Shown: positions 11,118 through 16,224, numbered from the stretch's first letter. The stretch is 39,194 nt of DNA from a virus (IMGVR_UViG_3300045391_007586); one strand, 5' to 3'. Notes: a model not told the origin generated them from the sequence alone. Translations and numbers: made by a program.

Positions 11118-12413
11118 TTAGATCGCCTTTATAGGAATCGTCTTTCGCAGCTTGGGCCGGCGAATATCTCCATCGATATGCACCATGATCTTGCCGGTGA
11201 GCCAATACAAGGCGCCGGACATGACCGCAGTGTTGAACTGAAATTCGTTCTCGCACGCCACATCAAATGCAGCACCTTCCTGATACATGCAGGCGCCGCC
11301 GCAAAGCTGGAGCACCGGGCAATGAGCGCAGTTCGGACGCTTGGACCAATGCCATGAGGTATCCACTGCGACCGACTCGAAGTCGCTTACATGGCCGACG
11401 CCGTGCTTACCCTTCGCGCCGACGTTCTGACATGTCATGACGTTGCCCTTCAGGTCAACCGCGAGCTGATCGGGCCGATCCATGCCGCACTTCTGCCACA
11501 GGGCGGTCGACGGCCGCTTCTGGCGCAGCGAGTCGATGAAGTTCGCCGCCTTGGCCGCAATCGTGTTGTCGTAGCCGCCAGGCGTGCGATTCACGAGCGC
11601 GTTGATGATGTTCCACTGGAGCTGCGAGTATTGCGCCTGCGTCCAGGTAGCGTCGTCTGTCCGGCCGTCCGAGTGCGGGTGAACGATACCCTCGAACGAC
11701 GCCATCACCGTCTCGCCGATCTTTTCGCTCAACCACTGCCGGGGCGAATCGATGTCGAGGTTTGCCGGCGTGATGACGGTGTTGAACGACATCATCCCCT
11801 TGCGGCCGATGCGTTGCCACAGCTTGCGCAGCATCGCGGCCTTCTCCGGGTCGTCGAATGGGTCCGGCCCGCGCAGGTGTTGCGCCTTCGCGTCGTGCGA
11901 TACGACGATGTAGATGTTGTGCCTGTCGATGAAGTCGATCTTCTCGTCGTCGAGCACGCTACCGTTCGTCACAACCAGCATGTGCGCATCCGGGAAGCGC
12001 TCGCGCATCGCCGGAATCAACACCTGCATGTGCTTCCAGTAGGCGAATGGCTCACCGCCCCAGAATTCGATCTTGTTTGGCTTGCTTTTGAGCCATGAGT
12101 CAAGATTTGCGAGGAAATCTTCCGCGTCCTTGACGTTCGAGACCGTTGCGTCTGGAATCTCCGACGACTGAAGGCAATAGGAGCACGCGTAGTTGCATTG
12201 CAGTCCGAGCTGGATTTTCAGGCGAACCGGCGCCCCGTGCTTCTTGCCGGGGCTGTCAGGCGAGATCGCGGTTGCGACCGGCCAGTTTCTCGCCTTCTCG
12301 TCGTAATCGAGCGGGACCGGGTTCCCGGCCTCGTCCGTCAGCGTGCTCGTGTGCGGGTCGTATAGGAGATATGAAACCGACCCATCCCCGCCCTGCATTG
12401 TCAGGCGATACAT
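11118..12413 (-). CDS. Radical SAM enzyme with SPASM domain
   Basis: CxxxCxxC (CNYACSYC), GGEP, VTNG, and SPASM-type cysteines CG...GNVMTC...CAHCPVLQLCGGAC...C. Confidence 0.93.
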   Translation of the reverse strand: MYRLTMQGGDGSVSYLLYDPHTSTLTDEAGNPVPLDYDEKARNWPVATAISPDSPGKKHGAPVRLKIQLGLQCNYACSYCLQSSEIPDATVSNVKDAEDFLANLDSWLKSKPNKIEFWGGEPFAYWKHMQVLIPAMRERFPDAHMLVVTNGSVLDDEKIDFIDRHNIYIVVSHDAKAQHLRGPDPFDDPEKAAMLRKLWQRIGRKGMMSFNTVITPANLDIDSPRQWLSEKIGETVMASFEGIVHPHSDGRTDDATWTQAQYSQLQWNIINALVNRTPGGYDNTIAAKAANFIDSLRQKRPSTALWQKCGMDRPDQLAVDLKGNVMTCQNVGAKGKHGVGHVSDFESVAVDTSWHWSKRPNCAHCPVLQLCGGACMYQEGAAFDVACENEFQFNTAVMSGALYWLTGKIMVHIDGDIRRPKLRKTIPIKAI

Positions 12414-13120
12414 TACTGGACACCTACCGTAACCGCGCCGACGCCCGAGTAATACCGGTAGCCAGCCTTGACAGTGATCGAATCGCCCGCGCTCAGGAGG
12501 TCGGCGCGGACCTGAACGGAGCCCTGCCCCTTGTCGTCGAGCTGGAGACGACGCTTGTTGAGATAGCCTGCCGAGGCTTTGAGCTCCAGCGAGACAGGGA
12601 GCGCCAGCGGAGCGCCGTCTTTGTCCGTGAGCTGCACGTCAATCGTCGCGACGCCATCCGGGGCGACGGTGGCAGGGCCGGTCAATTTCAGACTCGTGAA
12701 CTGCTTGCGCCATGCGCCCGAGTTCGGCTCGATTTCCGTGAGCGTCACGTTCGAGTCCACTTCATGCGCTGCGGTGAACAGCACATGACACTCGTCGAAC
12801 GACTTGACGTTCCGGTGCGGGACGAAAACCTGGATCAACAGCGAAGTGTTCAGGTCGCGTGCCACTTCGCTCAAGCTGCGCTTGCCCACCTGGCTGTGTG
12901 CGAAGACGTTTGCCACACCGGGTAGCATGACTCGACCGGGATCAACGACCGGGTTGAACCGGACGGCATAGAGGGTGAAGTCCCAAAAGTCGGCACGCGC
13001 CGCGATCTCCGCAAACGTCAGGCTTGTGGATTCATCGCCGATCGACATTTCGATCTTGTCGCTTGCATAGTTGACCTTCGACGGCAGGTCATGAGGAAAC
13101 GCTTTTGTGACAAAGTTCAT
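12413..13120 (-). CDS. Hypothetical protein with C-terminal Ig-like (Big/invasin-type) domain
   Basis: ATG 13120 with GGAG RBS; C-terminal beta-rich region (ATIDVQLTDKDG...GQGSVQV...ITVKA); stop overlaps the rSAM start (TAATG). Confidence 0.7.
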   Translation of the reverse strand: MNFVTKAFPHDLPSKVNYASDKIEMSIGDESTSLTFAEIAARADFWDFTLYAVRFNPVVDPGRVMLPGVANVFAHSQVGKRSLSEVARDLNTSLLIQVFVPHRNVKSFDECHVLFTAAHEVDSNVTLTEIEPNSGAWRKQFTSLKLTGPATVAPDGVATIDVQLTDKDGAPLALPVSLELKASAGYLNKRRLQLDDKGQGSVQVRADLLSAGDSITVKAGYRYYSGVGAVTVGVQ

Positions 13121-13168
13121 TCGATACTCCGAAAGTTGATCAGATTCTAAAGCCAAGCCGCCGAAATA

Positions 13169-13186
13169 TCAATCAACGTTGACTGA
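13169..13186. promoter_or_regulatory. Operator-like site 7 (TCAATCA-ACGT-TGACTGA)
   Basis: Within the last codons of fibre 3, upstream of the Ig-like/rSAM pair. Confidence 0.65.
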
Positions 13187-14356: not shown

Positions 14357-14362
14357 GTGACC

Positions 14363-15052
14363 TTAGCTGCAATAGACCGCGAATCCTGAAAGGGCTCCAG
14401 GCGGGCCTGGAGGCCCAGGTGGACCCGGAGGCCCAGGCGGACCCGGAGGTCCATAAGGGCCGGGCGCACCCGTCGGGCCACGCGCCCCGGTAGTCCCTGT
14501 GGGGCCGGTCGGACCTGCGGGGCCGACTGGACCTGTAGGTCCAACGATGAGCGCGCCCAAATCCGTCCCGTTTGCGATCTGGAAGCCGGTGACGGTGCCA
14601 CTAACGCCGCTCGATGCGCGGAAATTGCCGGCGCTCGCGGGTGCCGAACTCGTGATCAACCCCGAAACTGTGTCGGTCGTATTGGAGACGAGCAGCGCGA
14701 ATAGAGCCTGAATGAAAGCGGTTGTCGCAAGCTGGTTCGAGCTGTCGAATCCGGCCAGGTTGGAACCCGTCGTTGCGGTCGGAGCCTGCGGCGTTCCCGT
14801 AAATTCGGGCGAGTCCAGGTAGGCCATCAAGCCGCTCATGTCGAACGCGAGCTTCCACGTCGGCGCCAGGTCCGTCAGCTCGAACAGTTGGTTCAGGTCC
14901 GTTCGAAAGCAGAACATGCCCACTTGCAGGTTCGCGGTGGGGAATGCCGTTCCGGCGTTGCACGACAAGACGGTCTGGTCATTCTGAAGGAACAACGCCA
15001 GCGAGTCCTTCAGCTTCATGTCCGCGGTGACGGGCGTGTATTGCTGCGTCAT
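14363..15052 (-). CDS. Tail fibre paralogue 2: fibre N-domain + collagen, no Hint
   Basis: Same N-domain ([22 protein letters not shown]); 17 GXY triplets (14390-14542); ends SGFAVYCS. Start overlaps the paralogue 1 stop (ATGA). Confidence 0.85.
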
Positions 15053-16224
15053 GCCAATCCCTTCCAGTCGATTTTGCTGTAGTCGAATCCGGCCTCATTC
15101 ACGGATGCGCCGACCAGGTAGCCATTGACGATAATTGGCGGGCCATCAGTCACAGGAAGGTAGAGCGGCGTCTCGGCGCCCCAACCTTGCTCCACCACTA
15201 CCTTGCGCTCGACGAAACCGCTGACGTTCGCAAACAATACGTCGTCGCCGGAAAGCACGCTGTAGTTGTCCCTCAAGCCGCCCACCTGCCCTACCGCAAC
15301 CTCATAGCGCCATTGGTCGGGATTCGCTGACCACCACCACTGCTGATCGCCACGCTTGGCCCAAAAGCAGTGCTCTTCGCTCCAGAGCAGCGAACGATCG
15401 GAGAAGCCCATCATGCGGCGAGGCCCCAACGAAGTAACGTAAAGGTGCTTCACGCGCGCAGGGCCATCAACACTCATCACGAGGTCGCCCGCGCAGACGC
15501 GCTCGACAGCCTTTGTAGTCCCATCCGCCATGAGAACGGTCGCACCTGCGGGGAAGCAGCAGCAAGGGCATTGGCAAACGCAGTTGCAGTTCGACAGGCC
15601 GGAGACGCCAGTAGGCCCCGGAGGTCCAGGTGGCCCCGGAGGTCCGTATGGACCGGCGTAGCCAGTCGGACCAGTTGCGCCGGGTGCGCCGGGTGCGCCG
15701 GGTGCGCCCGTAGGTCCGGCCGGACCCGCTGGACCGGTCGGGCCTACGAGGACCGTGCCAAGGTCAGCACCGCTCGCGATCTTGAATCCGGTGTTTGTGA
15801 CGGATGTGCCGGCCGACTTGAATGATTGAGCTGTCAGCAGCCCATACATTGCGCCGCCCGTGCGCAGCAGCCCGAATGCGGCGACCGCCTGCGCGAACGC
15901 CGTCGTCGCGAGCTGGTTCGTGTTGATGTTCGATGCCGGGGTGGGCGCTGTCGGAATGCCGGTGAACGTCGGCGAGTTCAGGTAGGCGCGCGTGCGGTTG
16001 AAGTCGACGAGAAGAATCCAGCTTGGAGTCAGCGAGCCGTTTTGCACGGCATACTGATAGAGCTGAAGCAGGTCCGTGCGAAAACAGAACATCCCGACCT
16101 GAAGATTTTTCGTCGGGAACGACGTGCCCGCGCTGTTGGACATCGCGGTAAGGTCGTTGTTGGTCAGTTCCACCAACCCGTTCGCGATTGAGTCGCTAAG
16201 TTGGATGTTCGTGAATTTTTGCAT
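15049..16224 (-). CDS. Tail fibre paralogue 1: fibre N-domain + collagen + CxCxCxCxCxC + Hint domain
   Basis: [12 protein letters not shown]...QLATTAF repeat; 17 GXY triplets (15592-15744); [35 protein letters not shown] and SEEH. Confidence 0.85.

Follow-up and report, generated by a model that had tools for sequence, protein, structure and literature searches.

The viral stretch IMGVR_UViG_3300045391_007586, of which 39,194 nt were analysed (the window), carries among its tail genes a block encoding collagen-like fibres, two of them with a short cysteine-rich ladder, together with a radical S-adenosylmethionine (SAM) enzyme of the SPASM type, and it is the relation between this enzyme and the ladder that we consider here. 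The block spans positions 11118-16224 and resolves, by open reading frame (ORF) calling, into five consecutive ORFs, all on the minus strand, as are the coding features placed within them below: the precursor of fibre A (15049..16224, 391 aa), fibre B (14363..15052, 229 aa), the precursor of fibre C (13169..14356, 395 aa), a partner protein (12413..13156, 247 aa from a TTG start or 235 aa from the ATG at 13120) and the enzyme itself (11118..12413, 431 aa). A preliminary description of this DNA had proposed just such a run of co-oriented genes, overlapping in ATGA and TAATG and lying inside the tail module; the two overlaps are indeed found, at the A/B and partner/enzyme junctions, respectively. 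Upstream is a lambda-like tail-tip module with the tape measure (24302-29545), gpL-like, NlpC/P60 and J-like (18337-22845) genes, and downstream PHROG identifies a phrog_5093 protein and an endolysin (9772-10398), placing the block between tail-tip and lysis genes. The genome to which the window belongs is a single 109-kb contig.

Fibres A, B and C are paralogues that share, in the paralogue alignment, an N-terminal region of about 115 residues, also present in a fourth fibre elsewhere in the genome and in gp028 of Achromobacter phage JWF, and all three alike match PHROG tail-fibre families. Pfam Collagen (PF01391) is found in each (38.3, 37.0 and 31.9 bits, above the cut-off of 27.2), and the number of uninterrupted Gly-X-Y triplets is exactly equal, with 17 in fibre A (15592..15744, residues 161-211), in fibre B (14390-14542) and in fibre C (13733..13885, residues 158-208). 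Pfam and translation bear out the earlier view that two of the paralogues end in collagen, ladder and Hint: fibres A and C both consist of an N-terminal anchor, a shaft, the collagen stalk, the Asn-Cys ladder and a Hint domain. The ladder starts 0-3 residues after the collagen and is made of an Asn followed by alternating Cys-x with five to six Cys. In fibre A it covers residues 212-222 (15559..15591) and runs into Cys223-FPAG, the beginning of a Hint domain that extends to the end of the protein (15052..15558; His285 within WSEEH); in fibre C it covers residues 211-221 (13694..13726) and runs into Cys222-FPAG, with Cys222 the nucleophile of a Hint domain (13172..13693) that has Ser281-x-x-His284, no C-terminal His-Asn and no C-extein. 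Each ladder is the predicted mature C-terminus of its fibre and the predicted substrate of the radical SAM enzyme. Fibre B has neither ladder nor Hint; it ends eight residues past its collagen and thus stops where the ladder of A and C begins. The equal stalks would allow mixed trimers, or may simply keep one stalk length; a trimer of two laddered chains and one bare chain would be compatible with the equal lengths.

The association of enzyme and ladder is not confined to this phage. We collected 160 loci with homologues of the enzyme (36-50% identity; 80 viral contigs and 80 bacterial genomes), scanned them in six frames and, for the 125 with at least 4 kb of upstream flank, recorded ladders of the form (Cx)>=3C, that is, with at least four Cys. 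A co-oriented ladder ORF lies upstream of the enzyme at 105 of the 125 loci (84%), and the density of the motif is 27.7 per 100,000 aa in co-oriented upstream ORFs vs. 0.73 in the remaining stop-to-stop frames of these loci. The preliminary description would have counted as refuted if such enzymes usually occurred without Cys-rich fibre genes, and the opposite is found. Among the 20 loci counted as lacking a ladder, several have a shorter or more distant one, and eight are bacterial and non-phage, with a nitroreductase-YcaO fusion and an ATP-grasp protein, and form one well-supported clade in a FastTree phylogeny. The closest bacterial homologues of the enzyme, with 45-50% identity, are on Polaromonas and Variovorax chromosomes (L086 4390-9299; L091 4394-9305) within YcaO/ATP-grasp clusters resembling those of peptides that are ribosomally synthesised and modified after translation (RiPPs), in which no ladder gene is recognisable. 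No convincing Cys-rich precursor emerged from the GC-rich noise when the YcaO-linked loci of bacteria were searched for one.

The pairing also holds when approached from the ladder. When viral contigs were scanned for sequences that encode CNCNCNC[ND]C, 51 genes came up with the motif at most 10 aa from the stop, and all 30 of those with at least 3.5 kb of downstream sequence are followed by a co-oriented radical SAM homologue at a distance of 4 to 4868 nt; in nine of these ladder-seeded loci the enzyme starts only 4-8 nt past the ladder gene. About one sixth of the contigs overlap with the forward set, the others being independent. Such pairs are seen in siphoviruses with lambda-like tips, in the ackermannvirus RSP15, in jumbo phages and in prophages of Alpha- and Betaproteobacteria, and they persist across unrelated fibre bodies, phage types and gene orders, even where the ladder belongs to a free peptide of 68-113 aa. 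Taken together, the two scans are strong sequence grounds for regarding enzyme and ladder as a reciprocal conserved pair. What the enzyme tracks is the ladder, rather than Hint domain, collagen or partner.

Individual genomes illustrate how the pair can be dressed differently. Achromobacter phages JWF and 2-1 carry the same module without collagen, in the order J, small protein, ladder-Hint fibre, 241-aa protein and radical SAM enzyme, and in Ralstonia phage RSP15 a fibre fragment whose end reads NCQCGN is accompanied by a homologue of the partner found in the window, one more protein and the enzyme. The genome studied here itself contains a second module, outside the window (L166 4216-8479; about 32200-36500 of genome G000), in which a ladder-Hint protein adjoins a paralogous enzyme. 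One member, a fibre (L166 4216-5403), has the N-terminus common to the paralogues and closes with a Peptidase_S74 chaperone; the others are a protein of 331 aa in which Asn-Cys motifs abound and whose C-terminal part is ladder plus Hint, a radical SAM/SPASM enzyme of 473 aa with 33% identity to that of the window, and a 221-aa protein with no Pfam match. Of the joint system originally envisaged, then, enzyme and ladder stand as the conserved core, and the collagen, fibre B and the Ig-like partner fall outside it; fibre B and the collagen stalk are traits of this particular phage.

The ladder is recognisable in its composition as well as its position. Of 74 distinct tips at the C-terminus, 70 have Asn ahead of the first Cys, 67 have it in the first x position and 53 in the second; later x positions in the relatives are Asn, Ala or Asp, and the last is often Arg, Tyr or Cys. 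Summed over all 115 ladders, the x positions hold N 271 times, A 80, D 78, R 24, C 19 and Y 16. Ladders contain four to eight cysteines, and 43 of the 74 tips end exactly on the last one. In 105 of the 115 relatives the ladder lies within 8 aa of the stop and is the true C-terminus, and in nine it is followed by a Hint domain. From these sequences the unit is (Asn-Cys)n at a free C-terminus. An NCBIfam scan of the ladder proteins and peptides matched no family.

The enzyme was assigned to the radical SAM/SPASM class in the preliminary description, and the profiles agree. Pfam reports Radical_SAM (PF04055, 37.8 bits; cut-off 29.5) and Fer4_12, the SPASM model TIGR04085 scores 33.7 bits, above its NCBIfam cut-off of 27, and phrog_1802 is matched with an E value of 1.7e-51. 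The CX3CX2C motif of the SAM cluster is at residues 73-80 (C73, C77 and C80; 12174-12197) and the seven-Cys SPASM at residues 309-387 (11253-11489), the pattern C309, G323, C328, C362, C365, C371, C375 and C387 being invariant in 30 homologues. Altogether, ten Cys are invariant in this alignment, three of the SAM cluster and seven of the SPASM, and there is no invariant eighth Cys ahead of the SPASM motif. In CteB, a site of the auxiliary cluster is open for a thiolate of the substrate; by analogy, the lack of an invariant eighth Cys would leave the corresponding site open here, too. Profile matches to solved structures cover the whole core, and the best relatives include anaerobic sulfatase-maturating enzyme (anSME; 4K36-4K39) and CteB (5WGG). 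The best NCBIfam match is PapB (NF047865; residues 65-378, 66.2 bits vs. a cut-off of 340), and those of the paralogous enzyme are QhpD (TIGR03906; 79.5 bits vs. 453) and PapB. By the curated NCBIfam cut-offs the window enzyme belongs to none of the PapB, anSME and QhpD families, and its neighbours, examined with QhpD in mind, are phage genes. The system likewise departs from a canonical RiPP, with no match to a RiPP recognition element (RRE) and a predicted substrate that is a fibre precursor of 391-395 aa. The enzyme ends in a conserved basic tail, RRPK-x-R-x-x-IPI (residues ~418-431; 11118-11160), with a similar ...RRRTIPIKAV in the paralogue; this tail could be a docking peptide.

PapB and QhpD are both formers of Cys-to-carbon thioethers with Asp or Glu side-chain carbons as acceptors. 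QhpD is a radical SAM/SPASM enzyme that makes its Cys-to-Asp/Glu thioethers inside a protein subunit and not in a released peptide; in comparison to QhpD and QhpC, the gamma subunit of quinohemoprotein amine dehydrogenase, the substrate, context and motif of the phage system all differ. PapB joins Cys to the carbon beside a carboxylate, the C-terminal carboxylate included (PMC12373016), and NxxcB attaches Cys at the Asn beta-carbon, with Ala, Gln and Asp also serving as acceptors (PMC9389541). The window enzyme resembles PapB, of the PapA-derived ranthipeptide freyrasin, as a radical SAM/SPASM enzyme with a nearly full-length best NCBIfam match; PapA, however, is a small peptide with CX3D/E repeats, whereas the phage enzyme would work on a 220-residue virion fibre, at an end whose Cys-x ladder is mostly Asn. 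With the streptococcal radical SAM RiPP (RaS-RiPP) NxxcA, the similarity is in the substrate: the acceptors of NxxcB are the residues that fill the phage x positions, and (NC)n contains overlapping NxxC. This is a resemblance of substrate motifs only, with no NxxcB model among the NCBIfam matches listed, and NxxcA, unlike the phage fibre, is a quorum-regulated small peptide and not a structural protein. The two-domain architecture and the seven-Cys SPASM are shared with CteB, the SCIFF enzyme, and with anSME (5WGG, 4K36), but CteB has an N-terminal RRE, none of which is detected in the phage enzyme, and anSME makes formylglycine in sulfatases at a different motif.

The second catalytic element of the fibres is the Hint domain. 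The Hom_end_hint/Hint match of Pfam covers only the first 35-40 residues of a C-terminal domain of ~170 residues in A and C, with PF05203 scoring above its cut-off of 32.1 bits in fibre C (35.3) and below it in fibre A (27.3). The subfamily has 66 homologues, and in an alignment of 34 of them Cys1, Phe2 and the block-B His of W-S-x-E-H (WSEEH) are invariant, with about 25-30 conserved residues past the Hint core. An AlphaFold model of the fibre C domain built from the alignment has a mean predicted local distance difference test (pLDDT) score of 90.9, and its best Foldseek matches in the PDB are the Hedgehog autoprocessing domain 1AT0 (E 7e-6), the bacterial intein-like (BIL) domain BIL2 6Y75 and mini-inteins, at template-modelling (TM) scores by target of 0.64-0.73; in fold, Cys1 and Ser-x-x-His, the domain is a member of the superfamily. 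The phage Hint agrees with Hedgehog C-terminal autoprocessing and BIL domains in fold (1AT0, 6Y75 and 2LWY among the best matches), Cys1 nucleophile, block-B His and C-terminal placement, which implies N-terminal cleavage only, and differs from them in having a block-B Ser-x-x-His within WSEEH, no sterol-recognition region and no C-terminal His-Asn, and in sitting on phage fibres and pilus adhesins. It is not an intein: in the alignment, the Hint ends the protein, with no conserved C-terminal His-Asn and no C-extein, which excludes splicing and makes cleavage of the ladder/Hint bond the only possible reaction.

The earlier suggestion that cleavage by Hint exposes the tip fits well with all of this. 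As the ladder is the encoded C-terminus in most relatives, cleavage would recreate the usual architecture, with Ser221 as the last residue of fibre C and Cys222 as that of fibre A, and in the nine Hint-bearing genes the ladder runs straight into C-F-P-x-G-T, as it does in the window. Self-cleavage exposing the ladder is thus well supported by the alignments and the structure model. At least six Hint lineages, with a mutual identity of just 22-35%, follow ladders, and on the enzyme tree (FastTree, used for coarse statements only) the Hint state changes about six times, at least three of the changes being forced by well-supported branches. A comparable solution is the intramolecular chaperone of endosialidases and tailspikes (Peptidase_S74), which likewise stands at the C-terminus of phage fibres and cleaves itself, to be lost once they are assembled; its fold, however, is unrelated, its mechanism is a serine-lysine one and it has no association with Cys ladders.

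In about half of the Hint subfamily to which the window's domains belong, Cys1 is preceded by no ladder, and the contigs of eight members were inspected. In those tested that do bear a ladder (P0151, P0163, P0186 and JWF), the enzyme is always within 1.2 kb downstream. Two ladder-less members in jumbo phages are followed by a separate 68-aa peptide ending ...CNCNCNCNCSRGIL and then by three radical SAM genes (P0157, P0159, P0195). The jumbo-phage loci L288 (9387-15778) and L289 (9690-16092) have a ladder-less Hint fibre, a peptide of 67-68 aa, a ~300-aa protein and three radical SAM genes; only one of the two peptides was translated, that of L288, which ends ...ACNCNCNCNCSRGIL. Three further ladder-less members (P0134, P0142, P0145) come after a PilV/Shufflon_N gene in type IV pilus loci with no radical SAM gene, which makes the Hint module common to phage fibres and pilus tip adhesins. 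These type IV thin-pilus loci, with the ladder-less Hint after PilV/Shufflon_N, are L286 6313-10222, L293 6837-10243 and L287 6303-9044, and in two of the three the gene next after Hint is a pyridoxal phosphate-dependent Aminotran_5. Two lambda-like phages have small PanD-like genes (PF02261, Asp_decarbox) between the ladder-Hint fibre and the enzyme (L290 10662-11039; L291 9875-10354). Finally, a protein of the T7-like Providencia phage PSTNGR1 (L003 4551-5504) ends in a related Hint-like domain without a ladder, with 34% identity over fibre C residues 223-385, and the annotation of the 10.5-kb stretch shown contains no radical SAM gene.

We consider the best explanation of these observations, and a reasonably probable one, to be that the radical SAM enzyme is a thioether maturase that staples the ladders of self-cleaved fibre tips. 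Fibres A and C would be made as precursors consisting of anchor, shaft, 17-triplet collagen, Asn-Cys ladder and C-terminal Hint; Cys1 of the Hint (Cys222 in C and Cys223 in A) and Ser-x-x-His would form a thioester at the ladder/Hint junction and the domain would cut itself off, leaving the ladder as the free C-terminal tip of the fibre. The enzyme, encoded two genes downstream, would act on the ladder in the reducing cytoplasm, most likely binding a ladder Cys on an auxiliary Fe-S cluster and joining its sulfur to a carbon of Asn, Asp, Ala, Gln or the terminal residue, in a thioether of the type made by NxxcB, PapB or QhpD. The product would be a non-reducible covalent staple at the distal end of the collagen triple helix. 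Thioether stapling is, by analogy, the most likely chemistry on the strength of the best family matches (PapB and QhpD), the acceptor residues of NxxcB and the lack of an invariant eighth Cys. Such a staple would, by the same kind of analogy, sit where collagens need chain registration: in type III collagen, a C-terminal cystine knot at the end of the Gly-X-Y helix covalently links the three chains. That knot serves as an analogy only, being made of disulfides in an oxidising compartment, whereas the phage link is proposed to be enzyme-made and cytoplasmic; a non-reducible cytoplasmic link would suit proteobacterial phages, which assemble where disulfides do not form.

Other readings have to be weighed against the stapling. 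The enzyme might act on the ladder by another chemistry, such as anSME-like conversion of Cys to formylglycine, epimerisation, desaturation or C-C coupling; the reactions of SPASM enzymes are diverse, the anSME structures 4K36-4K39 are among the best PDB matches at nearly full length, TIGR03942 aligns over residues 69-379 and the homologue in JWF was annotated as anSME by its depositors. We nevertheless find this unlikely, given that the best family matches of both paralogues are thioether formers, and formylglycine in particular is hard to reconcile with an anSME score of 38 bits against a cut-off of 349, with ladders that lack the sulfatase C/S-x-P/A-x-R motif and with the absence of an invariant eighth Cys from the alignment. 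In anSME, the eighth Cys closes the first auxiliary cluster. No sulfatase gene is present within the window.

More doubtful still is that the Hint thioester serves for ligation and, in the style of Hedgehog and cholesterol, attaches the C-terminus of the ladder to a nucleophile on a neighbouring chain, the partner protein or a small molecule, with the radical SAM enzyme acting before or after. The 105 of 115 relatives that end at the ladder without any Hint indicate that a free carboxyl end suffices, the many divergent Hint lineages found after ladders fit a generic removable module better than a specific ligase, and no acceptor is identifiable; these outweigh, in our judgement, the Hedgehog domain as the best structural match, the conserved residues past the Hint core and the Cys found two residues before the scissile bond in both fibres. 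Least probable of all, to the point of being quite implausible to us, is that the ladder serves a trimeric fibre as a structural motif, binding metal, much as the His-x-His sites of T4 gp37 bind iron, or forming disulfides, and that the enzyme is co-inherited but targets something else. Phage fibres with metal-binding repeats are known, and the alternating residues of an inferred beta-strand would put all Cys on one face, as suits axial metal sites of a trimer. The coupling, however, is indifferent to fibre body, phage type and gene order and extends to the free ladder peptides, it is the ladder, rather than fibre body or Hint, that the enzyme accompanies, and every best family match of the enzyme is a maturase of peptides or proteins.

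Several observations tell against the stapling itself or limit its reach. Measured against the curated cut-offs, the enzyme falls far short of every characterised family (PapB 66 vs. 340, anSME [TIGR03942] 38 vs. 349 and QhpD 45.1 vs. 453), and function is therefore not transferable by membership; the type of bond is purely inferred for every member, and so are intra- or interchain linkage, the sequence in which cleavage and modification occur and what the tip does in adsorption. Linkage alone would be compatible with a ladder that binds metal and an enzyme that acts elsewhere in the fibre. About 16% of the homologue loci have no ladder of at least four Cys, and the clade is not restricted to fibre tips. 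The ladders of the window are typical at their start and atypical at later x positions, with Q, P, V and S where most relatives have N, D and A. Pfam finds no PqqD/RRE match in either the enzyme or the partner, which leaves substrate recognition unexplained, and the partner is not universal, other types of genes being found between ladder gene and enzyme elsewhere.

The partner was originally described as Ig-like, and its C-terminal domain does fold as Big-1 in the structure model (pLDDT 87.8): the domain is encoded by 12416-12697, and residues 142-235 of the model match with TM scores by hit of up to 0.56 and a root-mean-square deviation of 2.0-3.0, with a further match to intimin D00-D0. The assignment is structural only, Pfam giving no sequence match to Big-1. 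Fold searches found no informative structural match for the beta-rich N-terminal domain and, for the whole protein, returned only the Big-1 domain and uncharacterised phage proteins, with no enzyme or chaperone; an ESM Atlas look-up returned only unnamed viral clusters, with scores of 0.83. The partner family ("cluster B") is very divergent, with a mean identity of 20%, and stands between ladder gene and enzyme in 59 related loci, about half. In 68 loci, the position holds a putative 2-oxoglutarate (2OG)-Fe(II) oxygenase (PF13759, at or near the cut-off; e.g., L016 7342-7995, L018 7354-7995 and L028 447-1160), which may be a second tip-modifying enzyme, and in 16 a protein of the JWF gp029 type. 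Profile comparison found clusters A, B and C to be unrelated, and JWF gp029 is accordingly no longer taken for a diverged copy of the partner in the window. Of the three kinds of intervening gene, the genome of the window has the partner type only and no 2OG-Fe(II) oxygenase. From this distribution we treat the Ig-like partner as a probable optional accessory.

The block is also marked by palindromes. TCAGTCA-N4-TGAGTGA lies 10 nt upstream of the fibre A start (16234..16251), and the same palindrome, TCAGTCA-N4-TGAnTGA, occurs where fibre C stops, immediately before the partner gene (13169..13186), and just downstream of the enzyme stop (11097..11114), dividing the block into A-B-C and partner-enzyme. 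The preliminary description had taken these three sites for operators of the block; they are exact palindromes, but not block-specific. The 18-bp pattern has 33 strand-matches in the window vs. 0.61 expected and is found at ~19 gene boundaries there (1600-38649; also 17809, 18311, 23881 and 38632), that is, ~16 beyond the three of the block, and at 32 sites in the 109-kb genome. Operon-specific operators were rejected on account of this genome-wide spread, which marks the palindrome as a phage-wide element, probably a regulatory one or an RNA hairpin.

Radical SAM/SPASM cross-linking is known in small secreted peptides and in one bacterial enzyme subunit; our full-text literature search found no account of phage fibres as targets of a radical SAM enzyme, nor did we find such cross-linking described for a virus particle. 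The system considered here would be a case of radical SAM/SPASM maturation whose substrate is a structural protein of the virion and comes with a self-removing cap. We advance, tentatively and with the doubts slightly ahead, the broader proposition that in tailed phages of many lineages a dedicated radical SAM/SPASM enzyme makes the terminal Asn-Cys ladder into a thioether knot, proof against reduction, at the tip of the host-binding fibre, in the present genome capping a collagen and unmasked by a self-removing Hint that resembles a follower peptide carrying its own protease. Cultured phages with the same module exist in Achromobacter phages JWF and 2-1 and Ralstonia phage RSP15. If true, the stapling would provide protein engineering with a C-terminal staple that is genetically encoded, redox-proof and equipped with a self-cleaving cap; for phage biology, it would represent a new class of post-translational modification in receptor-binding structures, bear on fibre stability and host recognition and explain the very common, unannotated "radical SAM" gene of phage tail modules.

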